From: Lingula anatina
Lineage: Eukaryota > Animalia > Brachiopoda
Assembly (NCBI GenBank): GCA_051362555.1
Contig: CM120640.1
Span: 26,150,225 to 26,214,224, forward strand
Direction: 5' to 3'
Length of the DNA: 64,000 nt
Both the position numbers and the translations under genes were made by a program. The stretch's first letter is position 1; each line of letters opens with the position of its first letter. Below are positions 34-55,166 of this stretch, in pieces. The notes under the pieces are model-generated. The model saw only the letters and a program-made list of their open reading frames with translations, searched no databases and was not told the DNA's origin.

Positions 34-9848
<9,815 letters not shown>

Positions 9849-25096: not shown

Positions 25097-26433
25097 TTTT
25101 TATGTACAGACACAGATGTGTCTGTACATATTGCCATCACCTGCGTCTGTCGACGCCGTCGCCGATGGCGATGCCGATGGCGATGCCGATGCCGGCGCCA
25201 TGCACTTTCCTTGTAAACACCATAAGTGGAGGGCAGTTTTACTTTTTGGCTTTATATTTACAGAGCTGATGAATATTCATAAAACGCAGGTCAAGTTCGA
25301 AAATCAGCATGATCGGGCCATTATTGTAGAAGTTATGCTGTTTTTTCACTTTTCAGCATATTTTTCACATTTCCTCAGATTCAATTCTTAGGCATGTTAA
25401 CAGTCTCATTATTAAACTAATAAGATACGTAAAAGTTTTTGTTTGACATTTCCTGCATCTTTATAACATTGTTAGTTGATTTTGTAAAAATGATGGTAAA
25501 CTTGTTATCGTGTATTGTGTAATAAAGTTTCAAAAATGGAAATAAACTCATATCATTGCAGTTTGTCAGATTCAATCATTCACTGTGTTCAGAATCTCAG
25601 AATGGAAGAAATTGGACATTTAACACTGCTCTATTGATATTTTTCCCATCTCATCAATTTTCTTAGTTGATTATATAAAAATGGCAGTAAACTGTTAATT
25701 TTGTTTTATGTTAAAAATTGTTAAATATGGAAAAAAAAAACATTTCAGAACAGTGCTGTCTTGTTTACATTTTGGCATTTTCAAGTTGTGTCTTTGAAGT
25801 TCCATGGGCCTGAAGACCTTTGCTAGTCACATTTTCTGAATATCTATGATACTAATATTTTATTATTAAAAATTGATGGTAATTATGCTGTTAAACATTA
25901 TGTAATATTGCATCAAAATTTGAAAAAAACCTATTTTGGGCACTGCTCCCATGATGATCATTTAAGAAAAACCATGTCACTTACTGTTCTCAAACAGTAA
26001 AGTAAATATATATATAGATGTGTCTGTACATATTGCCATCACCTGCGTCTGTCGTCCCCGTCATCGCCGTCACCGGCGCCGTGCACTTTCATTGTAAACA
26101 CGATAAGTGGAAGGCAGTTTTACTTTTTGGTTTTATATTTACAGAGCTGATGAATATTCATAAAACGCAGGCCAAGTTCGACAATCAGCATGATCAGGTC
26201 ATTATTGTAGAAGTTATGCTTTATTTTTCACTTTTCAGCATATATGCAACACTGTAAACACATTCCAAGGAAAACCGATAGGCCTGTTGTCATGAAACTC
26301 ACAAGAGTAATCTATCTTACTAAAACGCAGGTCAAGTTAGAAAATCGGCATGATCAGGCCACTATTTTAGTAGTTATGCTTTTTTTTTCACTTTTCAGCA
26401 TATATGCAACACTGTAAACACAATATAAGAAAA
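25097..26433 (+). mobile_element. HINE family 1, two heads (25097 and ~26016), interrupted at 26433
   Basis: Same head and body as the 23938 copy; the body stops at ...caatataagaaaaa. Confidence 0.8.
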
Positions 26434-27175
26434 AGGCAGCAAAGCTGTCAAATGTACAGACAAAAAACAGAAAATAAAGATGCAAAATAGGTCATTTTGT
26501 CAATTTTGATGCAATAATAAATAATGCTTATAATAGCACTGTCAGTCAACACTGAATTTTAATCATGCACAACAGGTAACATGGTCAATAACAGGAGTGG
26601 ACCCAGAGATATTGCAAAATTTACCTGCATAATTATCACTGCTTCCTTATTATTAATCTAGCAGACTGGCTTAATCTTTGGGAGTTTACAGGGAAATATC
26701 AACAACTGTGCTTTATGTAATCTCATTTAATAACCTATTAATTAGGCAAGTGACTTTATAACTCTGCACTTAGCTTAGTGATACCCAAGGGAAATTTACA
26801 GACTGACCCTCTCAAAGGTCTTTCAGGCCAGTAAGTCACATCTTAACAAAAGCAGAAAGTAATAATGCACAAAATAGGATGCTGTCAATTCTGATGCAAT
26901 AATATATTACGCTTAACTGCAAAGTCAACATCAAATTTAAATTATGCAAAACAGGTAATATGAGAAAAATGAGAATTTCACAAAAAGTTGCGTTAATTCA
27001 ATAAAAAATGATAATCCAATAGAGTTTCTTCATTTTCGTTGCAATATTACATAATGCATAATGACCATCAATTTTAATAATGAAATAAAATTATCATGGA
27101 TATTCAGACTAGCAAAGGTCTTCAAACCCATGGAAGTTCAAAGTCACACCTTGAAAATGTCGATATGTGAAAAAT
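26434..27175 (-). mobile_element. HINE family 1 3' end, opposite orientation, diverged
   Basis: Starts ggcagcaaagctgtcaaatgtacagaca (reverse complement of the 3' subTIR and hairpin), followed by diverged internal repeats. Confidence 0.7.
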
Positions 27176-29165
27176 TTAAGGATGAGTGCAGATAACCATT
27201 GGCAAAGTGCCTATCGTCAAATTTTTTTAATAATTTGCTATTATAAAGTTTATGCATATATTTGTTGTGTGAAAAAATATTATTTGGTTTGAGGCATCGT
27301 ATTTTTAATGAGTTATATGTGGGGGTGGAGGTAACCAGATTTACCTGTTGTATGCAGTCTAATATGAAACAGAGCAAGTTATTTCAGCATATATATTGCA
27401 TAAATAATTTTTTCTAATGAAACTTGTCTTGTGGTGAAAAAAAGAGTTATATGTTAAATAATTGCGATGTGGCACAAGTAAATGGGAAAGTAATTGTTTT
27501 TTTTTTGTTTGTTTGTTTGTTTTTTTAATCCTAGAGAAGAGAGGGAGGGGTGGTGTATTACAATATTTTCTCACAGAAACCATCACTGATTTCACTTAAC
27601 TGTATAAAAGTCTTGTAACTAGAAAAACTTGTATCAGCGTATTTATTAATTTTATATAACTTTTCTCACAGACCAGCATTTGTTGGTCTAAATAATTATA
27701 TTGTTAACCAATACACATTTTGTACAGAGCCCTATAGAATAGTAAAAAATGCTAAAAGCAAAAGGCTGTTACAGAAACACAAAAAAATCATGTGTTAAAG
27801 CACTCTAAACACCTATTTGGAATGTTTCCATTAACCATACAATAAACAAGGTATAAATTGTACCAAAATAATGATAAGGTAAAAGTAAAAACTAAATGAA
27901 AATGTAGTACACATAATAACAGTAATGGCCAATAATCTGTATGACAATGAAAAAAAATCACCTAAAAAGTACTTCATATATGATAATGTATGTGATAAAG
28001 ACCTTTTATAGAAAGCAATGCAAGAGTTATTTTATACAAAATATATAAATATGAGAATAAAAAATGTATAATAAACAATAGATAATTAATCAGATGTGCT
28101 GTCTGAAACACTTTCTGCCTCGCTAATACTCTCACCACTTGATGTTGGTAAATGCAAGAAGTTATAACTTCTTGGTAAATGTGAGGCATCCTACCTCCCT
28201 ACCTCCCCCCCCCCACACGCACACACACACAAACACACACGCGAAAGTTTTTTTAAACCATGTAATGCCAGTTCTGAGCTGTGAATAGGGGAACTATGGG
28301 TCGCTGCATGCCATCTTCTTTCAAGCAAATCAAAGAAATGTTAAAATATTTAAGCAATTATAAATAGTAACTAAAACATTTTAATTTAAAAATCACAGCA
28401 AGCATATTATCTTTTCGTTATCCTTTCTCCTTGCAAAATCAAAGCAACCAAAGAAACTGGACAACTCCACATAAATATTAATCGCAAAAATGTATTATCA
28501 CTTCATCTTTATTGTCATCATCTGTGAAACAAGATATGAAATGAAAGTTTCTTCAAAGTGCATTGTGGATCAGTGTATATTGTGGATAAGTGTTCCAGTG
28601 TACGCGGACAAGGTCGTTCAATGACGGCCTGGGGCAGGTTGGTAAACTTCAAGTTGATATCATGTCAACAAGATGCAAGGACACTGTCAATCACAGTTAG
28701 GGGAGAGGCATGCGTGGTTTCCCTTCAAAAACTATTATAGCCTAACATTGATTCTTCCCTCCGAAGTAAATGTGTGATTTTTTCCTTTTAAACAAAAAAG
28801 TTAAGGTATGAAAACGCTGAATGTATTTCAAACGTAGGTGTATATACAATACAAATAATGAAATCTGTGTCTCACTCTCACACGACACCCCCGCGTCCAA
28901 ACTGACAGGATGGTGGCGACAGCAACGCCCCCAGTCGACAATCTAAGATTGGAAGTCTAGGAACTGCAAGTCTTCAAAATGGTTGAATAAGTTTAAATCA
29001 GTGAAAAGGGATCCAAAAAATAGTTTTTCATTTTAATACTTATCATTCATCAGCTTTTGCATTTTATTAGATAAGGACAATAATGGCACGAGGATGGAAA
29101 AAATCTTGGTTTTGTCTAGTTTTGCTTGCTATATGCATTTATATAAAAAAATTGGGCCTCAATTC

Positions 29166-29200
<35 letters not shown>

Positions 29201-29828
29201 TAGTGCCAGTAGATAAGGATAACAATGGCACAGGAATGGGAAAAACTAGTTTTTTTCTCGTTTTACTTGTGTTATAGTCAAGAACATATACATTTATACA
29301 CAATGTACCCCTTCGTTAACATTAAGAGGTGTTGGGTTCTTAAATCTACAGTGGGATTTATTTAAGTAAGATAGTTACTTCTCTAATTTGACTCAGGAAA
29401 GTCTAGGTAACGGCTCGAGTTATTCCTGGGGCTCCATAACTTAAAAGCATCGCGTATTGCGAACGGCGATATCACATAGAGGCTACAGTGTATTACATGG
29501 GGCGAGCATGGGCAAGTAATGGAATCGAGACACTTGCGCTCAGTCGCAATGCGCGCTGCTTTCGAGTTACGGGGCCCGGGAGAGCAAAGTAACGCAGCAC
29601 CACAGCTTTGTATCAAAAAACTAAAATTCAACTCATTACCTGGACATCGGCTAGTTTTATGGAAGAAATTGGAGTGACAGAAATAGTGACGAGATTGTAA
29701 AAGTTTAAGTGAGAGGCGAAAGAGGATAATTTCTACTAATGATTAAACAAGCATACATGCGAGTCCATTTAAATTTATTTGCAAGTCTCGCTTTTTTTAG
29801 CGATCTGTACACGACCACTTTTTTTTTA

Positions 29829-29829
<1 letters not shown>

Positions 29830-29877
<48 letters not shown>
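29830..29877. repeat. Poly(A) tract (~48 nt)
   Basis: Uninterrupted A run preceded by a T run; a second A run lies at ~29173-29199. Confidence 0.95.
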
Positions 29878-29879
<2 letters not shown>

Positions 29880-32514
29880 AAATTATAGAATATTTTTTAT
29901 TCAACTATTATGTACAATTTTGAATATTTACAGTTGATTTAAAAAGGACTAATAATCAGTAATGAACTACGTAAACGCAATGAATTAATACATAGCAGTA
30001 TTATCAAAAGTTCTAAGATTTTCCATCGTCTTCATCTAGCGTCCGATAATGCAGGTCTTGTGGTCGGAAACTGGTACCAGATGCTCTCGGGCCGTGGGGA
30101 AAAAACCGTCTAAACCCTTCGTGGGGAATGCCGGGAAAGTGCCCACGCCCGGAAAATTCGGTCCTTATAACATGACGAAATCGGTTTCTATTGGCACGGC
30201 GCTGCGTACAGTTCAAGAATCGTCCCGTTTTAGACAGCATTGTGTGACGGAATAACCTTTGTCTTGACTAACTATTCTCTATATATACTATACACGAGGT
30301 GAAGCATAAAAACTTATTAAAGTAATTCTTACAGAAAAAGGCACTGAAGCCAATAAAAAACTAACAAGAGACATAACAATTAAACAGAATCATTTTGACT
30401 TTATCTTGGAGAATTAAAACCATAAATAAAGTTAATCATTTTACAACTGCAAGCATCTTTCAAAACTTGATAATAGTTCTCTTTATGATAAAATGCAAAC
30501 AGATTCAAGTAATATGATTATAACTCGGGAATATCAATGATTTCAACTAAACTTTGATATATAATTCGACTTAAAATACCAGGTTTCTAAAATGTAACTT
30601 TGCACTGAAATCGCAACTACCTGCATGATACAAGTACAGAATAAAGCAAGCTTGCTTCAAAATATTTCGGATCTCACATTACACTGTATGACCGCCCATG
30701 TAAAGTTGAATCTGAATTTTTTTGATCCGGAGAAAAGGTGCATATGTGATGAAGTGGATGTATTTGTCAACTATAACACTTGAGAAAATCTGAATATTAG
30801 TAATGTGATCTCTATCTTGAGAGATGACAGCATCTCTCAAGAAGAGCAGACTGTACAAAAAATATAATGAAATATTTTCTCACACGTAAAATATTTAATT
30901 ACAGATTTTGCACAATCTATCAATGTAAAATCTCTTCATGTAAAAGCGTTTACATGAAGTCAGATTTTACAAAGATGTGAGGGTTTGTTAGTAAGGTTAG
31001 TGTGCAGGTTAAGACCTTTTCAAATGCCATACTGACAAACAACTCCACATCATCAAAAGCACAAATTTGAAAAATGACCATCTCAGATTGAAACAAAACA
31101 CAGACGACCACAAGTGGTGGGAATGTTTTTGTGAGCAAAAAACTATCTGCATTCAGAATGTGGATAAAGCAACTCTATATTCAAATTTATTAATATAATA
31201 ATTATAGCAACTGTAGAGGTAGACTTTTCCTACAGAAGCACACATCTTATGCAATTGATCTTGTATGGAATGAAGAATTATCTTGAACCTCAGTTTTCTC
31301 TTCTGTTATTGAAATAAAATGGTTCACTGCATAAGGTATAAAATACAAATGAAATTGAAGCAATTTCACCTTGACATGTTTGTGACCCATGAACCCCAAA
31401 TATTCTCAGCATCCAAAAGACATTAGACTGTATTCAGTACTGTATATTGCCTTCATTACCATTCCACATTCTCTATATTTGTTTGCAGAAAAAGCCGTGT
31501 CCTTCAACACCAAAACTCGTGGGATGTCCGAGCATCGATGAAAGTGTCCACAGGGCTCCTTGCTAACGCTGTACAGTGTTTAACATCTTGGACATTTGGT
31601 CTTGGGTCGACGTTATCCGACATCATGCAGGCAGGCTGTTTTTATTGGAAAACTCCCAATTCGTAGCCTACAAATGAAATCCAACTTTTACTCAAAAGTA
31701 TGAAAAGCTATATCGAAAGCTTGCAGTAACTGCAACAAAGAAAGTATATCACTGGTATTTACACACCGTTAACATTAATGAAAAGCTTGGTTCTTAAAAT
31801 GATCAGAGCGTTATTTCCAAATGTACAGTGAAATATGCTTCCTTTATTGAAATATATATATTAACTTTTTAGAGTAAGTAGACAGCAGTCTTCAAAAAAT
31901 AAATTATTTCAAACATTTGACAAAAAAGTAAGAAAAGATGTTGCTATATTGAATATTGTAATGTTAGCCTACATGTTAAATTGTTGACTGTCTGTGCTAC
32001 TTCTAATTCTACTGTTTGTTTACATAGGATATAGTTTTTGATCACTGTCAATAATAAGAAATGCCATAATACACCAATAATAATACTTAAAAATTCAGAA
32101 CCACTTATTCTTGATCCCCAATAACTTACAAAGTTATCTTTATAAAGATCCCTCAATCCTGAAGAAGTGTTTCATCTGGAGGTTTGGTAGTTGCAATCTT
32201 CATTTTTAGAATCCACCACTTTTGGTAGCCTGCAAATTTAAATTATTACTTCAAAATGTAATAAAAGTCAACCATTTGTATATGAAATGTGTTTTTAAAG
32301 TTTCAGCAGTTTGATGGGAAATAAATATCAAAAGCACTTTTGTCACAAACTTGGAAAAAACATTCAAGCGAAATATTTTGACATGCCACTGGCGACCTTC
32401 AGACTTAATGTCACAATGGGGTATTGCACAAATTAGTTTTAACGAAGGAAAAGGAATACTAACAGCATTTAAACGACTACTCAAAGACAAGTTTAAGTAA
32501 AGCCTGAACAATCT

Positions 32515-33245
32515 AGATCCAGCGGGAGGAGTGTACTAGTATTCCATCAAGTGTTTAATTTGTGAAGGATTTATATGGGAGAGAAAGAGAAAGTTGAACG
32601 TTAGAGTTAAAGAACACGGGAAGGAATAAGAAAGGGTACCCGAAGAGGGAAAAATACACTACAGCCCAAGGTAGCCTTCTGCTACAACGAACCATCACAA
32701 AAAAACATTGATTGGGAGAGTGCCAAGATTCTACAAAAAGAAAGTGACTGGAGAACAAGAGGCGTAAAGGGAGGCATATAAACCAGGAAAATGCCTAACA
32801 ATCTGAACAATATAGAGAGATGGAAATAAATACTCACTTCTACGGTGGCCTTTTATTACCACAACCACAGCACTGGAGGTGGGGGTGGTAGCTGCTAGTA
32901 TACAATTTCTGGACCAGTGACAACGTCCCGGAGTCACATTGGTGGTGGGTGTTGGGGGCGGTAGCTCCAAGTAATCTGGACCAGTAACCACGCCCTGGAG
33001 TCACATTGGTGGTGGTGGGTGGTGGGGGCGGTAGCTCCAAGTAATCTGGACCAGTGACCACGCCTCGGAGTCACATTGGTGGTGGTGGGTGGTGGGAGCG
33101 GTAGCTCCAAGTAATCTGGACCAGTGACCACGCCTCGGAGTCACATTGGTGGTGGTGGGTGGTGGGGGCGGTAGCTCCAAGTAATCTCGACCATTGACAA
33201 CGTTCTGCAGAATATCGAGACTGTTGAGGATCTGAAAGTTGACGA
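32515..33245 (+). mobile_element. Penelope-like retroelement 3' remnant (degenerate GIY-YIG endonuclease)
   Basis: With frameshifts it reads GV(Y)..KCLICEGF(Y)MGE..RKLNVRVKEH...HKKNIDWESAKILQKESDWRTRGVK(E)A..NNLN..RDGNKYSL, the typical PLE GIY-YIG pattern. Confidence 0.7.
32909..33200. repeat. ~70-bp G-rich minisatellite, ~4 copies
   Basis: Unit ctggaccagtgaccacgcctcggagtcacattggtggtggtgggtggtgggggcggtagctccaagtaat at ~32909, 32976, 33046, 33116 and a partial at 33186. Confidence 0.92.
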
Positions 33246-34667
33246 ATGGCATGTCAAATATTTTGTATGAATGATAAGGTTTTTCCACATCTGTGACAAA
33301 TTAAAAGAGCTTTTTACCTGTGAAAAATGAGCACTGAATTTGCTAGAGTAAATTGTAAATGGAAAACAAATGCCTGCACCGAGTGACAGGTCCCAAACAT
33401 TCTTAAAACAATTGTCTAAGACCTTGCACAAAATGCTCAGTTTGTTGGAGTTGCACTGATAAAAGATTTGTATTATCTATACAATGAATGACAATCTAGT
33501 TCATTTACCCTTATCCTGTCCCATAACTTACCTTGAATGCTCTCTAATCACAATTATTGAAGGGCTCTTGAAACACTATATGATATAGCTGACATGGCTT
33601 TCTCCCTTTTAGCCTTGTTAACCTTGTTAAAATGGACCGTCATCAGGACAGGCGCTCCCCAATGCTATCTGCCTCAACTACAAAATAAAAAATTATAAGT
33701 CAAAAGTTTCCCTCTTTACTTCTCCCACCCAAATCCAATCTACTAACCATAAATATCTTAATCCTAGGAGTGGGTAATGGGTAAAAGACATTGACATTGC
33801 CTTCTGAATGTGAGCTGTCAAATTAATGTGGCTAACGGTTTTTAGTTTTTCAAGGTATGAAAAATCACTTAAGTGTTTTGTTTTCCCCAAAAAACATGAG
33901 TGATATGTACCTTTTAAAGCTTGATAGGTTTCCATCTCTGTGAAACGCCATATGCTTCTGCTGCTCCCCCATGCAGCCCCCTAACATACAGACCATGGCA
34001 AGACTCAACCATGCACCAAGGATTGAATGTGACCCTCTTCTTGCACCTCTTTCAAAAAAGCGGGACTTTATCAGGAATTGCCCTAATTGAGTTCTGTAAA
34101 TAGAAAGGAAAATTTGATAAGTTTTCAAAAATTGTATATCAAAAGCAGTCTGCAGCCAGAAAAATTGTTGGAATCGGTAGATTTCCAGAATGTGTCAATT
34201 TGGTGACATGGCTGTTAGATTTTATCTATAAGTATGAAAAAGAGCTTTTGATTTATTTTAAATGTAACTGTTACATCATGATTCGAGAAAAATGTCAAGG
34301 TCTTGTTAATACAAATATTAATGCAATCCAGTCTAGTCCTATTGAACTTTGTATTCGAACCAGTGAATCAAAATTCAGACATCTATATCTAGTTTTTAGG
34401 AAAGAAGGTGGACTGAATGGCCAGTAGGGTGAAAAATTTATGGCACAGACTGCTGCTGAAAAATTAATTTTAGTGTATTGTTCTCGCCAGTAACACGGGT
34501 TACCTTGCAGGTTTTTCCGCCTCAGTGAAACACCATATGCTTCAGACGCTTCTCCAATGCAGCCTCCTCAACAGACCGTGGCAGGACTCACTGGCACCAA
34601 GGATTGAGGGATGTATCGGAAGTGTGCACGTGGCCCTCTTCTCCTTGCAGTTGCCATGAAACGTTGG

Positions 34668-35150
34668 ACAGGACTCGCTGGACGCTTCCTAGTGCAGCCA
34701 CCTCGTAGACAGACCATGGCAGGACTCGCTGGACGCTTCCCCAGTGCAGCCACCTCGTAGACGGACCATGGCAGGACTCGCTGGACGCTTCCCAAGTGCA
34801 GCCACCTCGCAGATAGACCATGGCAGGACTCGCTGGACGCTTCCCCAGTGCAGCCACCTCGCAACCAGACCATGGCAGGACTCGCTGGACGCTTCCCCGG
34901 TGCAGCCAACCTCGTAGACAGACCATGACAGGACCCGCTGGACGCTTTCCCGGTGCAGCCACCTCGTAGACATACCATGGCAGGACTCGCTGGACGCTTC
35001 CCCTGTGCCGCCACCTCGTAGACAGACCATGGCAGGACTCGCTGGACGCTTCCCCAGTGCAGCCACCTCGTAGACAGACCATGGCAGGACTCGCTGGACG
35101 CTTCCCCAGTGAAGCCACCTCGTAGAGAGACCATGGCAGGACTCGCTGGC
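34668..35150. repeat. 52-bp GC-rich minisatellite, ~9 copies
   Basis: Unit ggcaggactcgctggacgcttccccagtgcagccacctcgtagacagaccat starting at 34718, 34770, 34822, 34874, 34927, 34979, 35031, 35083 and 35135. Confidence 0.95.
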
Positions 35151-35209
35151 TCCAAGGGATGGTCGAAGTAGCTTAAGTGTAGATGTGGGGTGTCTCCTTG
35201 CAGTTGTGT

Positions 35210-37428
35210 CCTGTAAACAGAAATAAAAACGAGATTAGATTTCTTTCATTTCTCAAACCCCCCTTCCAAAAAGAAAAAAGATTACATACCTTAAGGAGTG
35301 TAGTCGAAGTCCCACAGGTGGCGCCCATCATCTATGTCCTGTAAAGAGAAATAAAAACGAGATTAGATTTCTTTCATTTCTCAAACTTCCTTTCCCAAAA
35401 GAAAAAAAGATTACATACCTTAAGGAGTGTAGTCGAAGTCCCACAGGTGGCGCCCATCATCTTCTATGTCCTGTAAACAGAAATAAAAACGAGATTAGAT
35501 TTCTTTCATTTCTCAATCCCCCCTTCCAAAAAGAAAAAAAGATTACATACCTTAAGGAGTGTAGTCGAAGTCCCACAGGTGGCGCCCATCATCTTCTATG
35601 TCCTGTAAACAGAAATAAAAACGAGATTAGATTTCTTTCATTTCTCAAACTCCCCTTCCAAAAAGAAAAAAAGATTACATACCTTAAGGAGTGTAGTCGA
35701 AGTCCCACAGGTGGCGCCCATCATCTTCTATGTCCTGTAAACAGAAATAAAAACGAGATTAGATTTCTTTCATTTCTCAATCCCCCCTTCCAAAAAGAAA
35801 AAAAGATTACATACCTTAAGGAGTGTAGTCGAAGTCCCACAGGTGGCGCCCATCATCTTCTATGTCCTGTAAACAGAAATAAAAACGAGATTAGATTTCT
35901 TTCATTTCTCAATCCCCCCTTCCAAAAAGAAAAAAAGATTACATACCTTAAGGAGTGTAGTCGAAGTCCCACAGGTGGCGCCCATCATCTTCTATGTCCT
36001 GTAAACAGAAATAAAAACGAGATTAGATTTCTTTCATTTCTCAAACTCCCCTTCCAAAAAGAAAAAAAGATTACATACCTTAAGGAGTGTAGTCGAAGTC
36101 CCACAGGTGGCGCCCATCATCTTCTATGTCCTGTAAACAGAAATAAAAACGAGATTAGATTTCTTTCATTTCTCAATCCCCCCTTCCAAAAAGAAAAAAA
36201 GATTACATACCTTAAGGAGTGTAGTCGAAGTCCCACAGGTGGCGCCCATCATCTTCTATGTCCTGTAAACAGAAATAAAAACGAGATTAGATTTCTTTCA
36301 TTTCTCAATCCCCCCTTCCAAAAAGAAAAAAAGATTACATACCTTAAGGAGTGTAGTCGAAGTCCCACAGGTGGCGCCCATCATCTTCTATGTCCTGTAA
36401 ACAGAAATAAAAACGAGATTAGATTTCTTTCATTTCTCAAACTCCCCTTCAAAAAGAAAAAAAGATTACATACCTTAAGGGGTGTAGTCGAAGTCCCACA
36501 GGTGGCGCCCATCATCTTCTATGTCCTGTAAACAGAAATAAAAACGAGATTAGATTTCTTTCATTTCTCAAACTCCCCTTCCAAAAAGAAAAAAAGATTA
36601 CATACCTTAAGGAGTGTAGTCTAAGTCCCACAGGTGGCGCCCATCATCTTCTATGTCCTGTAAACAAAAAATAAAAACGAGATTAGATTTCTTTCATTTC
36701 TCAAACCCCCCTTCCAAAAAGAAAAAAGATTACATACCTTAAGGAGTGTAGTCGAAGTCCCACAGGTGGCGCCCATCATCTTCTATGTCCTGTAAACAGA
36801 AATAAAAACGAGATTAGATTTCTTTCATTTCTCAAACTCCCCTTCCAAAAAGAAAAAAGATTACATACCTTAAGGAGTGTAGTCGAAGTCCCACAGGTGG
36901 CGCCCATCATCTTCTATGTCCTGTAAACAGAAATAAAAACGAGATTAGATTTCTTTCATTTCTCAAACTCCCCTTCAAAAAGAAAAAAAGATTACATACC
37001 TTAAGGGGTGTAGTCGAAGTCCCACAGGTGGCGCCCATCATCTTCTATGTCCTGTAAACAGAAATAAAAACGAGATTAGATTTCTTTCATTTCTCAAACT
37101 CCCCTTCCAAAAAGAAAAAAAGATTACATACCTTAAGGAGTGTAGTCGAAGTCCCACAGGTGGCGCCCATCATCTTCTATGTCCTGTAAACAAAAAATAA
37201 AAACGAGATTAGATTTCTTTCATTTCTCAAACCCCCCTTCCAAAAAGAAAAAAGATTACATACCTTAAGGAGTGTAGTCGAAGTCCCACAGGTGGCGCCC
37301 ATCATCTTCTATGTCCTGTAAACAGAAATAAAAACGAGATTAGATTTCTTTCATTTCTCAAACTCCCCTTCCAAAAAGAAAAAAAGATTACATACCTTAA
37401 GGAGTGTAGTCGAAGTCCCACAGGTGGC
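35210..37428 (-). repeat. ~132-bp tandem array, 17 copies, each an intron-like ~80 nt plus an exon-like 52 nt
   Basis: The cttaagg anchor recurs at 35290, 35419, 35551 ... 37264, 37396. Minus-strand unit: AAG|gtatgt...tctaat...ctcgtttttatttctgtttacag|GACATAGAAG...CCTTAAG. Confidence 0.95.
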
Positions 37429-37789
37429 CTCCACCAGTTTGCAGTCTGCTTCCTGGACCTGTAATAAAAAGAAACCTGGAAAGCATGGGAATATGCAATG
37501 ACACTACGACTCCAGCCCACGACAGCAAAAAGGTGAAGTATCCTGCGAAGATGACCGAGCGACGATTCCTCGTGGGGAGAAGCGAAGATTTTAGCTGGCC
37601 AGCTAAGAGAAACGCCGAATCCACCGTCTAGACGTCTGCGTGTGCAGGGAACAATATGTCGAAGAGCGATGCGTTGACGTAGGATGAGTAGAAGATTCGG
37701 AGAAATGGGAGTCGACTCCCGTGTCCTTTGTGCTTGATACAGGGCGCAGCACATGGCATCCGTCCTGTTGCTCTAGATCTGTCCGCTGT

Positions 37790-37830
37790 TGAGTGAACGC
37801 ACTTTTAAAATTTTGCGCTTTTATACCTTT
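37790..37830 (-). promoter_or_regulatory. TATA box plus initiator-like core promoter facing the exon-intron array
   Basis: Minus-strand TATAAAAG (~37824-37817) followed ~30 nt later by TTCACTC, then a CpG-rich stretch. Confidence 0.45.
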
Positions 37831-38385
37831 GTTGACGTATAGTCACATGATGGCGTTCTTGTTGTCATCAATGGTCAACTTGTTCAAAGGGGATGGCCTT
37901 TGATAGTGATGCGAAAATGTTGGTAATAATATCTTATCGACATATACATTTTCTTTTATATTTTATATTTTGATTATTCTGCCTGTCAGTTTGTTTATAA
38001 TAAGAGTAATAAGTTCTAAGCAGTGTCTGTGAAATGTGCAGGCAAATTTGATGAAAATTTCTGAGCAACATACCTTCTCCCTAAAATTTTTATAGGTACG
38101 ATGTTCGTTAAGCTGGTAGCTGTGAACTTCTCGCAGGCTACTTTAGTGTGCGTGTATTTGAACACTGATCCAAAATGTGGATAATGTAATTTGGCGTAGG
38201 GTGACTGCATTTTTGAGGCAGCCTGAGGGAGTATGGTTGTTCTGATTGTAGTGAATTGTAGAGAGACAATTGGAAGTACACTGGACTTAGCATGTTCAGT
38301 CACCCAAGTACTCTGAAACACATTTTGTAATCAGCTGACTTGTTATTCTGAAAAATGAAAAAACAAATTATATTGATTTACAAAA

Positions 38386-38597
38386 CTGGAAGATAGAAGC
38401 AGTGGATCATATTACTTATGCCAGGCAGAAGAAACGACTGAATGTATATTTTTATATTCAAAACGTCTACTGATTTAGGTAATAATTAATAGCCTGGAAG
38501 ATAGCAGCAGTGGATCATATTACTAATGCAAGGCAGAAGAAACGAGTGAATGTATATGTCTATATTCAAAACGTCTACTGATTTAGGTAATAATTAA
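38386..38597. repeat. Two-copy ~108-bp direct tandem duplication
   Basis: ctggaagatag..gcagtggatcatattact...aaacgtctactgatttaggtaataattaa at 38386 and 38494. Confidence 0.9.
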
Positions 38598-40470
38598 CAA
38601 CTGACGTCTCCCTTCATGGCGTCGGGTTATCAGTACTCCCACACCAGTAACATGAGTTATGAGTTGAGCAGAAACAGAAAAAGATTTTTTATAAAGATAA
38701 TGCAAGTATATGTGTAGGCCCATTTATCTTTTTTTATATTACTAAACGTAAGAATTGTTTGTCCAAGTGAAACTTTACTTACATCAGCCTAGCAACTAAA
38801 TCTGACGTTTTAACGTCTCCGAAAATAACTAGAATTTTTTTAATAACGCACTAATGCGGCCACCTTCGAGGTGTCGCCCGGTTTTTAAAAATTGAAAAAA
38901 GAAACTTTTCGGGGCGTCTTTTGTCGCGGGTCATTATTTTCAGTTGTTTGATGTTTTTTTGTAATATTTTAGCCATTGATAGAATCTATAATTCAGTTAC
39001 ATCCACGATTAGCTAGACGAAATGGTGACAGGGAAAAGTCAAATTTTTTAAACGGCAAAAACTGCATTCTCTTAGAAAGCAATTAGCAAACATTCATTAC
39101 CAGGCACTGTGAAAAATTCAACCGAAGTTGAAGACAAAATGTGTCAAAAATAAACGTGCATGTCGTAATACCTATTTATAGCAGTCTAATTTTTGTTAGT
39201 ATTAAAAACGTGTAAATATTATCCACATAGGATATTTTTAAAGCCTTCGATATTTAAAATATTTAAACTTCCCATACTTTGAGGCATGCATGAGTCGGAA
39301 AATGTTTGCATAATTACATAAAAAACTAGAATTATCTCTTTATGTGACCACAGTTTACTCATGTGCCTTACATCATTCCCTTAAACCCTTTCCCAATATC
39401 GATTTCAGATATTTTTGACACATTTTGTCTTCATCTGAATCACGTGAACGTTATCAAGTGTCATAAGGCGTACATTACGAAAATATTTAGGTCTTGGAGT
39501 TTTAAAATTTATTTTAGGAGAGGTAAAAAACCCCAACCCCATCTAATATATATTGGATACATTCGTAGGCTTATGTCCTTAGAACTAGGCGTACAAAATG
39601 TGTCTTCTAGCTAAAGTTATTATTATGGTGTATGTGTAATTTAAAAAAAACTACGTAAGAGTGACAATAGGTCATGTGTTTCGAATGCACCCCCACTCTC
39701 CGATCAGTCATTACTTTTGTATAATTCACAGTCCATCTTCGTTGTAGTTTGTGACTTTACGTCATTTCTTAGTGAAGCGGTGTTGTCCTCAATTTACCTT
39801 AAATGTCCAAATTACTAAGAAGAAACCACTTGCAAGAATTATAAGGCTTTTTATACTGCTAGGTCTATAGACGTGATACACACGATATTTTGCAACCCCA
39901 CAAAATCTGTTTCTTAAAATTTTGGTTCCACCACAAAGCTTAGCACTATCATTCTTTTTTGCTTTATTGATATATTTTCAGTACATAAATAACCATTGTC
40001 TGTTGCCCAATTTTGCACAAAATTAAGATAATCCCCAAAACCTCATTAATTGTGTTTCCTCCATCCCAAAAAATATTAAAAATTTCTCCTCATAATTTAG
40101 TAGTGCACTGGCATCTACACAGTACATAAATGTATCATTATAATAACATCTTGTTCTTACTGATAACATAATTAGCTTAATTCCATAACAATTCTAAAAT
40201 GTTAATAACAATGAAAATTCAAAGTAGATGGCAAGATTCTTATTGTGCTGATAAAGACAAAATATGTAAATTCAATACTGATTAGGTACTGTATACTGGC
40301 TCATTGAAAAAAGGGAACCGTTTCACAAAAAAATTAAGCTTAGACTGCTAAATCTGGATAGCCAACTATACAAAGTCAACTTTGCGATATTGTCTTACAA
40401 CTACAATTTTTTAAGAATGATTGGTCCACAGTTGATGAGTAGAATATACATAAATGGGCTACTGACACCA

Positions 40471-43400
40471 ATTCAATTCAATTCAATTTATTTTATTAAA
40501 GTCTCACCCATAGATACAATTAAAAAACAATAAAAATTAAAACAGTCATCAGGCAGTTCTATACAGAGAACTATGAGAGACTAAAAGAACTAATTACAGT
40601 TTAAATACATAAAATTTCTTCTTAATCCTAAGGAAAGGCTACAGGCTTTGGCAGTGCTAAAAATCATTTTTGGATCATCAATCAGGAAAAGAAATTTGCT
40701 TAGTTCATCCAATAAATCAAAATCCGGCTTAAAACATTTAGCAGTTCTAATTAAATCAGTACGATAATCATTAAAAAATGGACAATTAATTAAAAAGTGA
40801 ATCTCATCCTCAACACAACCTGATTCACAGAGTACACACGTTCTCTCCAGCACTGGAAGTTGTCATACCGTCCAGTTTCTATTCTGAGTGGGGCCACCCC
40901 ACATCTCAGCTTAGCCAATGCCCGCCGGTGCTTGAGCGATAAAGTTGGTTTCTTAATGTATTCACTAACTACCAAGTCTTGCTTAAACAGTCTGAATAGC
41001 CTCAGCTTATTTCCACCTCCATTTCTACGTGGGGTATCATCCCATAGCTTCGCCAACCAATCGGAGTGACATTCAAAAGCTACACTCTCCCTAACACAAT
41101 TAAGTGTACTAGCCTTCGATATATCATTATCAGTTACGTATAGGTGGCTTACTCCTAGATCACTAAATTTACCTTTAACCCTAGTTATCCAATTTTTCTT
41201 TCCATTGTTTGATACACGTAAACTCCATAAAAACACCTTTTTAGTCAACCTATTACAATCCATATTAGCTAATCTACACCAGAAATTTGTCACATTAATT
41301 AACTGCTTTTCAAAAGGCAAAATCCATCCCATTTCAGCACGGGTGGCAGCGGCTGGCGCGTACCTACCCACGCCCAAAAAATACCTACAAGCTCTATTGA
41401 AAACAGCATTAATCTGACTAAATTCCTGGAGTCCCCATATAGCAGAACCATATTCTAACACAGGAGCTACAAGTGCATCGTATAATTTCGTAAAGCATGC
41501 ATAGGGCATGCCCCCACAAGCCTTGCATTTTGCAATTAGAAGACCTAAAGCTCTGCTTGCAGACTTAGCTATACATGATACAGTCTTATTCACATCAAAG
41601 TGTTCAAAATACCACATACCCAAGTATTTATATTTTTCAACAATGTTTACTGTAAAATTGCCACATTTAAAAACATAATTTGTTCTAGGTATTTTAGGGG
41701 ACCTAAAATGAACTATCTGGGTCTTGTCCACATTCAGAGTCAACTGCCATTTATAACACCACTTGTGCACCACATTAAGCATTGACTGTAAATCTTCCTC
41801 ATTCTTGGCCAAAAGCACAACGTCATCTGCATAAAGAAGCGAGCAAATCAGCTCATCGTTTACATTAATGCCTTTACCCAGAGCTTTCAGATCATGTACC
41901 ATATCATTAATGTAAATGTCAAAAAGTAAAGGTGACAACAGGCACCCTTGTTTTACTCCAGTTTCAATATCAAAGAAACCTGTTGTATAGTTATTTACCC
42001 TAACACAGCACTTTGGGTTATCATATAAAGCCTGGAGGGAATTCATAAAATTTCCACATATTCCTAGTTTAAATAATTTATACCATAAAAGAGACCTATT
42101 AATTCTGTCGAATGTTTTTCTTGCATCGATGTAACAGGCATATATGCTCGGCTTTTGCTTTAAACTATTTTCTATTATACTGGACATTACATACATGTGA
42201 TCTAAACACCCACGGTCTTGTCTAAAACCATTTTGCTCGTCAACTATTATTTCATTATCTTCTGCCCACGTCGATAATCTCCTATTCAGAATAGATGTGT
42301 ATATCTTATATATGCTAGATGATAATGTTATTCCTCTATATTCTAGTGGGTTGCATGAATTAGCACCACTACCTTTCGGTATGGGACTAATGACAGACCT
42401 AAGCCAATCACTAGGGACCACAGAATTAGCAAAACAGTACTTAAACAGGTTGTACAAAAATATAATAGTTGCAATTGTTTTTTAAGACCTTCGAAGGCAG
42501 GTCATCAAGCCCGGGGCTTTTACCACACTTAGCACCATTAACTGCAAGCTCAACTTCTTTAAACGTAATATCAGTGTTAAGACTGGCACTCAAATCTGGT
42601 GTATCAAGTTTACCCTGTCTATAACTATAAAGTTTCTCATTAACCTGGGCTAAGAAAAATTTATCAAAACTATCACAATTTTTATCTGACACACCTGCAT
42701 AGTCATTTTGCCATTTCAATAAAACCTCAGTGATATCCGTGGAGACAGTTCCATCATCTCTCACTACTTCCATGGGAATGGTACTTTTTCTATCCTTCTG
42801 AATTCCGATGCGACCAATATCTCTCCAGAAGTTCCGTGGATCACTGGTTTGTTTTTGTAAGAGTTCTTCTTGCGATTTACGCCAAAACTGGCGTTTAGCT
42901 CGTTGTTTAGCATGGTCAAAATCACGCCGTTTGCTTACATAATCATTTTTTAATTGTAAAGAGATACTACTATTTGATTTCACTGATGACCAAAGCCGCT
43001 CCGAATCCCTGACATTTTCCCACATTATTTGAAGCTCATCGTTCCACCATTCTTTATTAGGTCTAAAATACTTCTTTGCCCGGGTGCTTCCACCGCCCAC
43101 AGATCTATAAGGAAGTTTGGTTTTCATTTCACTCAGTAACACAGATTTAAATTATAAACATTATCAATATTTGATTGAGTGAGATCCATCGTGGGAATAT
43201 TTTGTAACAAAGCATTAATTTTAAGAGAAATTCCATTAGAATTCATGAAGTCGCTTGGCACTGTATCCACATTAAACTTGTAATGAACTTCCGTTGGCAC
43301 ATGTGAATGGTGAGAGCTGTCAACTGCATTCCAAGGTGAGAGGTCGAATTCCCAGGAGAGCAGAGAATGGTCGGGTAAGGAACAGACCGGTCTTAGGTCT

Positions 43401-43718
43401 AAAGCATTACATAATTCATTAACCCTTTGCACAGTAAAATTTTGAATCATAGGTAGGTTCTCATGTGTTGTAATGCAATAATCAACCACAGCATGACCAC
43501 GGGCTGACACAGATGTAAAGTCATTTTTAGATGCACAAGTATCGCGCCCATTAACAATGCAGCAGCTAGTGTTAATCAAAAAATCAAGTAACAGATCACC
43601 ATATTGATTGGTAATAAAATCGATAGTGTTACGTTCAGGTAGAACATCCACCCCAGCAAGTAAAAGTAAAATCGATAGTGTTACGTTCAGGTAGAACATC
43701 CACCCCTGCAAGTAAAAG
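40471..43718 (-). mobile_element. 5'-truncated non-LTR retrotransposon (APE-RT ORF2, possibly RTEX-like), frameshifted
   Basis: APE C-terminal motifs (GHAVVDY, PDHSLL), KSPGLDDL, YRGITL, EQNGFR, GVKQGCLLSPLLF, LLYADD, YKYLG and C-terminal RIETGRY..C..C..EDEIHF..C. 3' AATAAA plus (TTGAA)n tail at ~40471-40497. Frameshifts near 43140, 42450 and 40855. Confidence 0.93.
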
Positions 43719-43867
43719 ACTTGCCAAGACAATCAAACTGTAAATCAAAGGAAAGTGAAAAGAAAGTAAAAAGACTGGAAAAAATGAGGCAAAATTGATA
43801 ACTTGGTTAATGAGCGAACAATACTCTAGTTTTGATTAAATCAGAACTTTTCTTGCACCTATTTTTA

Positions 43868-45533
43868 TATTTGCCATTTTGTAAGTGAAACAAGGCAGCA
43901 AAGCTGTCAAATGTACAGACAAAAAACAGGAAATAACTATGCACAAAATAGGCTACTGTCAATTCTGATGCAAAAATACATTATGTTAAACTGCAAATTC
44001 AACATCAAATTTTAATTATCCTCAATAGGTAATACCAATGTAATTAAAATATGTGACAAGTTTACACTTTGAAAATGTATAATTTCAAGAAAAAGAAGTC
44101 AATTCGACTGCTTTTCCAACTCAGGCTGAATTTTAGTCCTGTATTTCTTTTTTGAAAGTTTGGCAATCATAAGTAACATGGTTTTCCCATAATGGTCATC
44201 ATGGCAGCAGCACCCAAAATTGTGTTTTCTTCTATTCTGATGCCATATTACAAAATGGTTAACAGCATAATGACCGTCAATTTTTAATAATAAAATATAC
44301 GTATCATGGATTTTCAGAAAATGTGACTAGCATGGGTCTTCAAGCCCGTGGAACTTCAAAGTCACACCTTGAAAATGCCAATATGTGAAAAATTAAAATT
44401 TCACAAAAAACTGTTTAACTGGCAGTAAGAATTACCAAACAGACTGTATTTCCTACTGAAGCTGTATTTTAGTCCCATGTTTCTTTCCTGTAAGTTTGAG
44501 AACAGTAATTGGCATGGTTTTTCTTAAATGGTCATCATGGGAGCAGTGCCCAAAATAATTTTTTTTTTCAAATTTTGATGCAATATTACATAATGTTTAA
44601 CAGCATAATGACCACCAATTTTAATAATAAAATATTAGTATTATGGATATTCAGAAAATGTGCCTAGCAAAGGTCTTCAGGCCCATGGAACTTCAAAGTC
44701 ACATCTTGAAAATGCCAAAATGTAAATGAGACAGCACTGTTCTGAAATGTTTTTTTTTTTTCATTTTTAACAATTTTTAACATAAAACAAAATTAACAGT
44801 TTTCTGCCGTTTTTATATGATCAACTAAGAAAATTGATGAGATGGAAAAAATATCAACAGAGCAGTGTTAAATGTCCAATTTCTTCCATTCTGAGATTCT
44901 GAACATAGTGAATGATTGAATCTGACAAACTGCAATGATATGGGTTTATTTCCATTTTTGAAACTTTATTACACAATACACGATAACAAGTTTACCATCA
45001 TTTTTACATAATCAACTAATAATGTGGTAAAGATGCATGAAATGCCAAACAAACACTTTTACGTATCTTATTAGTTCAATTATGAAACTGTTTACATGCC
45101 TAAGAATTGAATCTGAGGAAATGTGAAAAAACAGCATAACTTCTAAAATAATGGCCTGATTATGCTTATTTTCGAACTCAACCTGCGTTTTAGTAAGATT
45201 GACCACTCCTGTGAGTTTAATGACAATTGGCCTAATGGTTTTCCTTTTAATGTGTTTACAGCGTTGCAAATATGCTGAAAAGTGAAAAAACAGTATAACT
45301 TCTACTATAATTTGGCCCGATCATGCTGATTTTCGAACTTGACCTGCGTTTTATGAATATTCATCAGCTCTGTAAATATAAAAGCAAAAAATAAAACTGT
45401 GTTCCACTTATCGTGTTTACAAGGAAAGTGCATGGCATCGGCATCGGCATCGGCATCACCATCGGCGACGACGGCGACGACAGACGCAGGTGATGGCAAT
45501 ATGTACAGACACATCTGTGTCTGTACATAAAAA
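43868..45533 (-). mobile_element. HINE family 1, complete copy
   Basis: 3' hairpin and subTIR at 43868-43900; 5' hairpin head ending tgtctgtacataaaa at ~45533. Confidence 0.85.
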
Positions 45534-46229
45534 GGGGAATAGGGGATTGGTGTAGTGAAAGCCCAACCTTAACCTTTGGATGCTATTCTCATTAAACATA
45601 TGCATAAAAGACAAAATTTAGACCACAAATAGATTCATGCAATCTACCAACCTTTTTTACAGTGAGTCATTGCAACTTATCAGTTATTTCTGACCTAGGC
45701 TATCTGTAAGATTCTTACAACCGTGAAGTGCAACTTAGCCAGCTAAGTCTTTATAGGCTCAGATTTTAGACTACAAACCAACTTCAAACATTTAGTAAAG
45801 CAAGTGCAAGGAATAGTTAGTTTGAAGGCTCTGCCTCCCCATAGGGTGAGAACAAACACAGTCACACTGTATGATACATTACAGAAAACACTGGTTAAAA
45901 ATATACTCTGGAATTTTACATTTTCACTAGTATAGAATCAATTTGATTTCTAAAACTGACTTATTATAAAAATACTCCTGTCAATTTAACACTTTTTCAT
46001 AAAGCATATCTGAAATACACTGATAAAATGTTATTAAAAATATTAAAATCTGATATTCACAGATAAAATAGGCTCAAGTCAAAATGATTAAGACAATTAT
46101 TGAAGCATTATTCAAACCCCAATTTTGATTATTTTCATACAATTAGTGATTCACAAGTTCTTTAACAGAGTTGTACCTAATCTGACTACATGATATCTAT
46201 CAAAATCTCTCTAAAATCAAGTGACAAAC

Positions 46230-47176
46230 TAGACAGCACTGTGCTGAAATGGGTTTATTTCCATTTTTAACACTTTTTTAATATAAGATGAAATAAACAG
46301 TTTACTGCCATTTTTATATGATCAACTAAGAAAATTGATGAGATGGGACAAATATCAATAGAACTGTGTCAAATGTCCAATTTCCTCCATTCTGACATTC
46401 TGAACATAGTAAATGATTGAATCTGACTGATATGAGTTTATTTCCATTTTTGACACTTTATTACACAATACACGATAACAAGTTTACCATCATTTCTACA
46501 TAATCAACTAACAATGTTGTAAAGATGCAGGAAATGTCAAACAAACACTTTTATGTGTCTTATTAATTAAATAATAAGACTGTTAACATGCCTAAGAATT
46601 GAATTTGAGGAAATGTGAAAAAACAGCATGACTTCTAAAACAATGGCCCGATTATACTAATTTTCAAACTCAACCTGCATTTTAGTAAGATTGACCACTC
46701 CTGTGAGTTTAATGACAATTGGTCTATCTGTTTTTCTTATATTGTGTTTACAGTGTTGCATATATGCTAAAAAGTGAAAAAACAGCATAACTACTAAAAT
46801 AGTGGCCCGATCATGCCGATTTTCGAACTTGACCTGTGTTTTAGTAAGATTGATTACTCCTGTAAGTTTCATGACAACAGGCCTATCGATTTTCCTTAAA
46901 ATGTGTTAACAGGGTTGCATATATGCTGAAAAGTGAAAAAACAGCATAACTTCTACAATAATGGCCCGATCATGCTGATTTTCGAACTTGACCTGTGTTT
47001 TATGAATATTCATCAGCTCTGTAAATATAAAGCCAAAAAGTAAAACTGCCCTCCACTTATCGTGTTAACAAGGAAAGTGCACGGCGCCGGCATCGGCATC
47101 GGCGACGGCAACGACGGCGACGACAGACGCAGGTGATGGCAATACGTACAGACACATCTGTGTCTGTACATAAAAA
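46230..47176 (-). mobile_element. HINE family 1, 5' portion
   Basis: Head tgtacagacacatctgtgtctgtacataaaaa at ~47146-47176, with microsatellite and subrepeats. Confidence 0.8.
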
Positions 47177-48528
47177 CAGATAGGCCAATTGTCATTAACT
47201 CACAGGAGTGGTCAATCTTTCTAAAACACAGGTTGAGTTAAAAGACCAGCATAATCGGGCCATTATTTTAGAAGTTATGTTGTTTTTTCACATTTTCTCA
47301 GATTCAATTCTTAGGCATGTTAACAGTTTCATTATTTAATTAATAAGATATTAAAAGTGTTTGTTTGACATTTCCTGCATCTTTACAACATTGTTAGTTG
47401 ATTTTGTAAAAATGATGGTTAATTTGTTATCGTGTATTGTGTAATAAAGTTTCAAAAATGGAAATAATTTCATATCATTGCAGTTTGTCAGATTCAATCA
47501 TTCACTATGTTCAGAATCTCAGAATGGAAGAAATTGGACATTTAACACTGCTCTATTGATATTTTTCCCATCTCATCAATTTTCTTAGTTGATCATATAA
47601 AAATGGCAGTAAACTGTTCATTTTGTTTTATGTTAAAAAATGTTAAAAATGGAAAAAAAACATTTCAGAACAGTGCTGTCTTGTTTACATTTTGGCATTT
47701 TCAAGTTGTGACTTTGACGTTCCATGGGCCTGAAGACCTTTGCTAGTCACATTTTCTGAATATCCATGATACTAATATTTTATTATTAAAAATTGATGGT
47801 CATTATGCTGTTAAACATTATGTAATATTGCATCAAAATTTGAAAAAATCCTATTTTGGGCACTGCTCCCATGATGACCATTTAAGAAAAACCATGTCAC
47901 TTACTGTTCTCAAACTTACAGGAAAGAAACATGGGATTAAAATATAGCTTCAGTAGGCAATGCAATCTGCCAGTTAAACAGTTTTTTTGTGAAATTTTAA
48001 TTTTTCACATATTGACATTTTCAAGGTGTGACTTTGAAGTTCCACAGGCTTGAAGACCCATGCTTGTCACATTTTATGAAAATCCATGATACGTATATTT
48101 TATTATTAAAAATTGATTGTCATTATGCTGGTAACCATTATGTAATATTGCATCAGAATAGAAGAAAACACAATTTTGGGTGCTGCTGCCATGATGACCA
48201 TTATGGGAAAACCATGTTACTTATGATTGCCAAACTTTCAAAAAAGAAATACAGGACTAAAATGCAGCCTGAGTTGGAAAAGCAGTCTAATTGACTTCTT
48301 TTTCTGGAACTTTTACATTTTCAAAGGGTGAACTTGAACTCCCATGGGCCTGAAGCTTTATGTTTGTTACACATTTTACTTACATTGGTATTACCTGTTG
48401 AGCATAATTAGAATTTGATGTTGAATTTGCAGTTTAACATAATGTACTTTTGCATCAGAATTGACAGTAGCCTATTTTGTTATTTCCTGCTTTTTGTCTG
48501 TACATTTGACAGCTTTGCTGCCTTGTTT
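47177..48528 (+). mobile_element. HINE family 1, 3' portion (continues the copy broken at 26433)
   Basis: Begins cagataggccaattgtcatt, which follows caatataagaaaaa in intact copies; ends tgtctgtacatttgacagctttgctgccttgttt. Confidence 0.8.
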
Positions 48529-48938
48529 TACTGTCATTTTCATAGTGAACACTGCGTTACCAAGTAACAAAGTTACCAGTAATATTAAGTGAAATTTTGG
48601 TGCCTTACAATGGATAATATTTGAAAAAGTGACATCTGAAGCACAGTGCATTACATAGCATATCCTCTCGACATGCAATAAAATGTCATAGTTGTGAACC
48701 TGGGGTTGCTCTTCAAGATGATGAACGTGGCTGCATGGTATCTGTAGCAGAATATGTCTACTGATTTATTATTAGAGAAAATTTGCGTTATAAACAAATT
48801 ATGTTTCCAAATTATGGAGTAAGTTACATTCTGGTTATAATAATAATTGTTTTCAGTTGTTTCTTTCACCAACATAAGTCCACATTCTCATCCAATTGTG
48901 TTTTTAGTGAAAAAACTCCTTTCTTGCCCAGGTCCTGG

Positions 48939-51343: not shown

Positions 51344-51554
51344 TGTGATGGGTCCCGCACTTATTTACAAACTTCAAAATTATATTGATATATGAAAGTG
51401 TTTTATGTACATTCAAATGTCCTTTCAGAATATTTTTAAAGCCATTGAAATTTGATTGAGTTCGTTTTGCTTAATATCATAATGGTACTTCTCTTCGATT
51501 ATTTGTAGAATTTTGGTGCAGTGCGCTGCGGGACATTCACTCTGGAAAACAGCA
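51344..51554. promoter_or_regulatory. Bidirectional promoter MRPS18C/ELMOD3
   Basis: Divergent ATGs at 51343 (minus) and 51555 (plus), ~210 bp apart. Confidence 0.65.
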
Positions 51555-54500: not shown

Positions 54501-55166
54501 ACAGAGCCAGCCGTTGTCATTCAATGAAGCATTGCAATATTATCAGACAAAGGACTTATCTGATGTCAGGGTAAGAAAACAGATGCATTACAAATTATAA
54601 ATACTTCTATTTTCTCTGAAGTTGCAAATATGATTGCTTCTATTAAAGATTATTTGAAACTTTGCCATATTGTAACTTATGTTTTCATTGGCTTATTTAA
54701 TTGCTGAAGAATTTAAAAATTAAGATGTCATCAGGGTGGGAAAAATATATAAGTTTTTCATTTCTTTTATACTCTGAATTTTCATTTGTTTTTATATTTC
54801 TAAAGCCTCTTATTAAAACCAGCATAGAAAGAAGGGGGTTTGCAGCATTTAAGCATTTTCTGTTGGGACCACCTAAACTTCACAGAGAACTTTTACAGGA
54901 AAGAGACATGATATTTTGCATAGCAGCAAGTAAGCCCTTTTTTTAAATAAAGTTTTTTTAATACAGACACTGTAAGTATCTGTATATATTTTGATTGGTC
55001 TGTCTGTCTGTGTCATCGCTGTAGCTGTCCAACACATGATGTTCACTCCATAACTACCAGACCGTATTTTTGTTTTACCTTAAATTTACTGAGTAGCTTT
55101 GTTTGGTAAAGAAGAGGGTTGCTTTTGTAAATCTGCATGATCGATTTACATTTATGGTAATTATTC

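Follow-up and report, generated by a model that had tools for sequence, protein, structure and literature searches.

A 20.7-kb block with Helentron-type ends in an A5 run of a HINE of Lingula anatina

Introduction

The non-autonomous Helentrons known as HINE or DINE-1 (HLE2, as defined in PMC11417382) are described as having 11-bp subterminal inverted repeats (subTIRs), a palindromic 5′ end, a 3′ hairpin, and central repeats of ~160 bp. They enter T-rich targets without duplicating them, occur in clusters, and insert into repeats (PMC4067079, PMC7492417, PMC11417382); in oysters, HINEs were found inserted in other repeats (PMC7492417). Capture of long DNA by HINEs was proposed as likely in the paper that defined them (PMC4067079). 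Here we describe a block in a 64,000-nucleotide stretch of DNA from the brachiopod Lingula anatina (hereafter the window) that shares all these features, but whose two ends lie 20.7 kb apart and belong to different subfamilies.

For Helitrons, bypass of an end and composite transposition are established, as reported for HelibatN539 in bats (PMC4224331), and maize Helitrons reach 39 kb (PMC6431247). Like the block, such composites join the 5′ end of one copy to the 3′ end of another and carry the intervening DNA. They are, however, canonical Helitrons with fragments of host genes, and in the bat the parental locus was found (PMC4224331, PMC6431247), whereas here the ends are of the Helentron type, the cargo was already repetitive, and the donor was not seen. 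For the Helentron class, chimeras arising by self-insertion were proposed for the non-canonical Helitrons of Fusarium (PMC5148889). There, too, nested copies swap termini, and the structural class is the same; but the Fusarium chimeras combine an outer 5′ end with an inner 3′ end, with a duplicated part typically shorter than 200 bp (PMC5148889), while here an inner 5′ end would pair with a 3′ end at a distance of more than 20 kb. Among the listings and passages that our literature searches covered, there was no report of a HINE-bounded unit of this size, or of Helentrons in Lingula. The mechanism is known; the size and clarity of the present case are unusual for HINEs.

Results

Junctions of the block with its host element

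At the junction on the left, CAATATAAGAAAAA runs up to 26434, after which come a subTIR and a 3′ hairpin, both on the minus strand. On the right, 47176 is the last base of a minus-strand 5′ palindrome with T5, and CAGATAGGCCAATTG starts at 47177. An earlier note on this DNA had placed both junctions at HINE termini, and they indeed fall at the exact ends of non-autonomous Helentrons. Because five A stand on each side of the block (26430–26434 and 47172–47176), the deletion that restores the A5 run of the host is 26435–47176. The interval given in the note, 26434–47176, leaves four A and is thus off by one base. The two host halves are in exact register, and no host bases were lost.

The host is a plus-strand HINE that begins with a first monomer (25097–25995), which has a true 5′ end with T5 and subTIR palindrome. 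It continues in the left half of a second monomer (26016–26434), ending in the A5 run 26430–26434, and resumes beyond the block in the right half, up to its own 3′ end (47177–48525). The part from 25097 to 26434 is a dimer with 95.2% identity over 1151 aligned bases to 6234–7686, chimeric inner junction included. Deletion would rebuild a continuous element, as had been claimed, but the host starts at 25097, not at ~26016.

Contigs of four DNA runs (X2, X5, X7, and X10) were aligned over 44800–55100, i.e. on the right side only. Contigs of X2 and X5 (X5 possibly being the window's own source) join the 3′ end of the host HINE to the unique flank on the side of a ribosomal S18 gene. The contigs break at the HINEs, and none spans a junction from unique to unique sequence.

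The A5 run is read through intact in all four other window copies that carry it (24398, 46744, 7269, and 5812); the reference copy introduced below, copy C, is a variant without the same run. No loose ends at the A5 run were found among the 24 contig rows listed (3165 further rows exist). The target is T-rich and unmodified, with intact paralogous copies giving the empty site; the extra T may belong to the termini. As the two host halves contain ~12 runs of five or more A, two independent antisense insertions would share this one in about 1 of 12 cases, deletions not yet counted. The 20.7-kb block with Helentron-type ends in a clean target is a real feature.

The two ends of the block

As a reference for family 1, self-comparison and motif scans provided copy C, a complete HINE of 1.64 kb within the block (43891–45533, minus strand, read from 45533 to 43891), which has the same orientation as the block and T-run flanks. 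It consists of a T5 flank, an 11-bp subTIR in a 13-bp palindrome, ~160-bp repeats, another subTIR, and a short hairpin, after which come TTG and at least three T. Since copy C has these parts, family 1 falls under the HINE definition as given in PMC4067079. Copy C is 93–97.5% like the window majority. The summed contig depth on HINEs is 5,000–10,000 times that of the flank; this is not a copy number, but it indicates a very abundant family, with thousands of copies.

SubTIRs of 11–13 bp stand at both ends of the block (ATGTACAGACA at 47171, its complement at 26452). The 5′ terminus (46229–47176, minus strand) is a short-type family-1 HINE of 948 bp, which ends at the internal hairpin GCTGTCTAG. 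Its 5′ palindrome (47140–47176) has a 13-bp stem (−9.8 kcal/mol), its first 150 bases from 47176 are 97.9% identical to the copy at 7686, i.e. plain family 1, and it has a diagnostic stretch in common with the copy at 23939.

The 3′ terminus (26435–27179, minus strand) comprises the subTIR and hairpin of a diverged HINE subfamily, with no matching 5′ end nearby. Its stem-loop has a 4-bp stem (−3.0 kcal/mol), the same as in copy C. The interior of this piece is 77–84% (about 78%) like family 1, and the piece is 81–85% like four family-1 3′ regions, which are 94–97% like one another. Assignment to HINE families and subfamilies followed the rule of an identical 11-bp subTIR and 80% identity across the final 60 bp; the 3′ end belongs by this rule, with 94.8% over its last 58 aligned bases, despite the interior of ~78%. 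A subTIR scan of 27180–46228 gave exact matches in copy C only, i.e. no 5′ partner for the diverged 3′ end.

Judged by these comparisons, the two ends of the block belong to different elements of different subfamilies, so that the 5′ and 3′ ends come from different copies in the same orientation. The short HINE also differs in its flanks, with the host HINE on one side and a multi-copy repeat on the other. Both end pieces break at roughly homologous sites of the internal repeat unit.

Several other HINEs occur in the window. The minus-strand element at 5530–7686 is a composite HINE in an intron of a HELQ-like gene, and its chimeric junction is common to 25097–26434. At its end, a mini-HINE of 160 bp is nested in a T run of the last monomer, and the right half of this monomer is absent; nesting of the family in its own T runs is seen at 5688. 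Fragments of one more HINE subfamily, of greater divergence, were found at 15346–16000, 10661–10880, and 55442–55472, the latter being a high-depth 3′ end (55.4 kb).

The repeat carried between the ends

Between the two end pieces lies the cargo (27180–46228, no strand assigned). Its right end (45534–46228) is a multi-copy repeat, whose TTT flanks the short HINE on the 3′ side; multiple copies were seen for this part only. The span 27.2–46.2 kb would form one continuous unit. Against single-copy depth medians of 48, 116, 99, and 53 (four runs, X10 last), contig depth over 45534–46228 was 1088–1263, 2627–2695, 1740–2116, and 318–441, respectively. Taking contig depth as a rough proxy, this is 17.6–26.5 times single-copy in X2, X5, and X7, and 6.0–8.4 times in X10. 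The high-depth contigs quit aligning at 46227–46228 and run on for 483 (X2), 41 (X5), and 62 (X10) letters; for X7, no contig running on past 46228 was among the pieces listed. The 483 extra letters of X2 had no match to HINEs among the matches listed for the aligned stretch. For the right 695 bp, the cargo hence occurs without the HINE in contigs of three of the four runs. Since other copies of the repeat run on with no HINE, it is the short HINE that sits in the repeat and not the reverse. A HINE is hence missing at this point from the majority of the repeat copies, and the alignment breaks off where the terminus was predicted. The window sequence at 45534–46228 differs from the consensus contigs by ~1%.

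The share of words of 27200–34600 was 0.53–0.62 in nine runs (six samples from three studies) and 0.09 in X10. In three flank contigs (~6.4 kb in total), 10 letters distinguish X5 from the window, from which a share of ~0.95 would be predicted for single-copy sequence. The word share of X5, 0.60, would fit collapsed multi-copy sequence, with X5 as a possible source of the window. Absence of the cargo from X10 was considered and rejected: X10 has the cargo right end, and its divergence of ~4–5% in the host flank largely explains the low share. Over 48586–54989, this run shares the L. anatina label, yet its host DNA is ~4–5% off the window, and it has fewer copies of the cargo repeat. X10 represents a diverged lineage.

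At least at its right end, the cargo is repetitive and not single-copy host DNA that had been captured. A Pfam search of the interval covered 149 open reading frames (ORFs) of 44 aa or more. The reverse transcriptase of a long interspersed element (LINE) was the only credible match, and the interval holds no recognisable conserved host gene, in agreement with the earlier note; one tandem-repeat ORF had summed low-quality matches, with no passing stretch. The LINE (40469–43718, boundaries approximate, minus strand) is 5′-truncated and frameshifted, with an endonuclease remnant, an RVT_1 match (E = 9.5e-37), and a (CAATT)n tail. Without the LINE and copy C, the unit would measure about 15.8 kb.

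A gene-like region occupies 28090–37754 on the minus strand. Its first exon (37467–37754) matches L. anatina LOC106172600, whereas the exons below 35.2 kb were predicted from splice motifs and carry stops. The ORF 37305–37757 had a single match among 1.84 billion representatives, again LOC106172600; isoform X1 of this protein is identical over 96 residues, followed by a one-base frameshift in the window and 25 residues at 88%. The last exon of isoform X1 is the unit of the 132-bp array described below. Because its two isoforms (X1 and X2) differ by substitutions, two genomic copies of the gene are suggested; the modelled protein may be spurious. No relatives were found outside L. anatina in a protein search, in which 1 of 17 candidates scored, namely its own isoform, while for a second cargo ORF (33150–33300) none of 10 candidates scored.

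Three tandem arrays lie within the gene-like region: (i) 17 units of 132 bp (35207–37436, minus strand) with 17 donor-like and 18 acceptor-like motifs, each unit comprising a 52-base exon with stops in all three frames and an 80-base intron with canonical splice motifs; and, from a tandem-repeat scan of the cargo, (ii) nine units of 52 bp (34669–35149) and (iii) 4.3 units of 70 bp (32908–33202), both without assigned strand. A degenerate plus-strand fragment at 32450–32860 had no Pfam match; we take it to resemble the GIY-YIG end of a Penelope-like element. A pair of 27-bp inverted repeats at 39126–39436 is possibly a small element with terminal inverted repeats (TIRs).

An internal site resembling the 3′ end

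The 5′ piece of the block and the copy at 23939 depart from the reference at one site, right after GCTGTCT(A/T)G. This stop point (GCTGTCTWG before TT) resembles the true 3′ end (GCTGCCTTG before TTT). In the window, three sequences follow the look-alike site, each beginning with TT: the repeat unit (four copies), a 3′ fragment (23939), and the cargo. Four long copies run through the site into the first internal repeat unit. We would regard the look-alike as a weak 3′ end of older date that has no subTIR and is often passed; three X7 contigs that have this end but proceed into unit-like sequence speak against this reading. It also marks a module boundary at 46229, 47683, 44728, 24922, 25763, and 6742, and in an X10 contig with a depth of 1970 a variant of it is joined directly to the second repeat unit.

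Proposed composite transposition by 3′-end bypass

Movement of a large composite between HINE ends, one of the origins put forward in the earlier note, is the best-supported reading, given that the outer junctions lie at element termini and restore the host in register, and that the two flanks of the short HINE stem from different sequences. In the form we propose, the block was inserted as one composite rolling-circle copy after bypass of a 3′ end, an origin to which we give an even chance. Because other copies of the repeat lack it, the short HINE (47176 to 46229) would likely have inserted into one repeat copy. A Helentron transposase supplied in trans would start at the 5′ palindrome of this HINE (47176). 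Replication would pass the weak, subTIR-less hairpin at 46229, copy the downstream repeat, and stop at the next full end with subTIR and hairpin, that of the diverged subfamily at 26435, which is probably the repeat's own 3′ end. The composite copy would then enter the minus-strand T5 run of the dimeric host HINE; the outcome of this step is seen in the window, the event itself is our reconstruction. Copy C, with an intact 3′ end in the path, would be a later arrival or would have been bypassed as well. One rolling-circle event, from 47176 past the weak end to 26435, would explain all three junctions, and the element at 5530–7686 is a small composite in the same window.

Several observations weigh against this scenario. 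Hardest to explain is copy C, which has an intact 3′ end on the same strand (43891–43921), at 3.3 kb from the start; its likeness to the window majority is 93–97.5%, while the repeat end is within ~1% of its consensus contigs. The internal hairpin lacks a subTIR, and its folding is weak (−0.6 to −4.0 kcal/mol, compared with −3.0 kcal/mol for the true end). In X7, three contigs ending at 46226 go on into unit-like sequence, so sisters of the short HINE can be long types and the short HINE could be a truncated copy. The 3′ piece lacks the terminal G of TTG that is present in all four family-1 3′ ends. A single shared CpG-type change is all that ties the host halves to one copy. No Helitron or PIF1 match, and hence no transposase, was found by Pfam in the 149 ORFs of the interval. 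Neither a donor copy nor an empty allele was seen in contigs of the four runs, whose evidence spans 44800–55100. Scans of metagenomes with the cargo pattern and with the HINE 5′ pattern gave no matches each.

Alternative origins

A close but less probable alternative is that a native large non-autonomous Helentron of at least 15 kb entered the A5 run, that a short HINE inserted near its 5′ end, and that recombination between the similar 5′ ends removed the intervening piece. Here a single insertion accounts for both junctions, the 11-bp subTIR recurs unchanged at the diverged 3′ end, for which the cargo contains no 5′ partner, and the repeat does run past 46228 in other copies. This sequence of events requires one extra step, however, and the 150 bases at the 5′ end are plain family 1, without traces of a diverged 5′ end; nor did the letters by which the X2 contig runs on match HINEs among the matches listed. 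Ectopic recombination between nested HINEs, which had also been suggested, accounts for the right junction, but for that junction only.

Two independent antisense insertions into the same A5 run of neighbouring hosts, followed by deletions or ectopic recombination that removed complementary halves and left a local pile of repeats, would likewise yield ends of different subfamilies. The family, with its thousands of copies, does nest in its own T runs, and the host halves are not firmly tied together. We nevertheless hold this course of events improbable, since the chance of sharing the A5 run is to be multiplied by two complementary deletions, one of them ending within three bases of the 46229 hairpin, and the run is intact in the other window copies, with no loose end in the contig rows listed.

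An assembly error within high-copy repeats is suggested by the repeat-rich interval and by the lack of a contig crossing a junction between unique sequences. It is very improbable all the same: a mis-join of repeat copies would keep register and would not put two termini on one target, and contigs of X2, and of X5 as the possible source of the window, connect the 3′ end of the host with the S18 flank. The HELQ-like and S18 genes on either side are also neighbours in human, as HELQ and MRPS18C (PMC5340257), which argues against a large mis-join.

That an ordinary HINE entered the A5 run and was later inflated by nested insertions, as the earlier note had considered, is scarcely credible as the main origin: the interval does contain a nested LINE and a nested full HINE, and the end pieces break at roughly homologous places, but the ends are of unlike subfamilies, the repeat breaks off at the HINE although its other copies run on (the reverse of an insertion into a HINE), and no TIRs at 27180/46228 were found among the 25 longest of 357 inverted pairs, which were dominated by poly-A. 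A simple inversion was rejected by reasoning, as a flipped block would still be a nested insertion.

Genomic surroundings

The proteins of the window match L. anatina, with a POMK kinase at 61 kb that is 99% identical and with the cargo gene; PKDCC was rejected as the identity of this kinase. The helicase gene at 1–10 kb has Pfam matches to POLQ_helical and Helicase_C and is presumably HELQ. Further host genes are the ribosomal S18 gene at 49–51 kb, which from motif likeness we take to be S18C, and an ELMO-domain gene. Between the HELQ-like and S18 genes, a multi-exon host gene (17000–23450, plus strand) ends near 23.4 kb; a Pfam search gave no match for it. The interval 23.9–48.5 kb is flanked by two convergent gene ends. 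The annotated cargo gene lies on a record of 1,673,043 bases and POMK on one of 33,613 bases, compatible with a paralogous locus as well as with a broken assembly. At 11519–15409, three tandem units of 458 bp and related ORF fragments, probably of a transposase, had no Pfam match.

Discussion

We tentatively suggest a broader picture, which is possible but less likely than not. The cargo would represent ~20 young non-autonomous Helentrons of at least 15 kb that carry a spliced orphan gene and have an exchangeable 5′ end. Short HINEs with a leaky, subTIR-less terminator would land there, or in any DNA, and drive segmental copies of 20 kb, and the long HINE subfamilies would have been assembled, one module after another, by this leaky end.

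Because the cargo is repetitive and without a conserved gene, the host seems little affected. The recurrent internal stop site offers a concrete sequence on which to examine Helentron termination, i.e. a hairpin alone versus subTIR plus hairpin. Provided that the block moved as a single piece, 20-kb blocks can be relocated by a family of thousands of copies.

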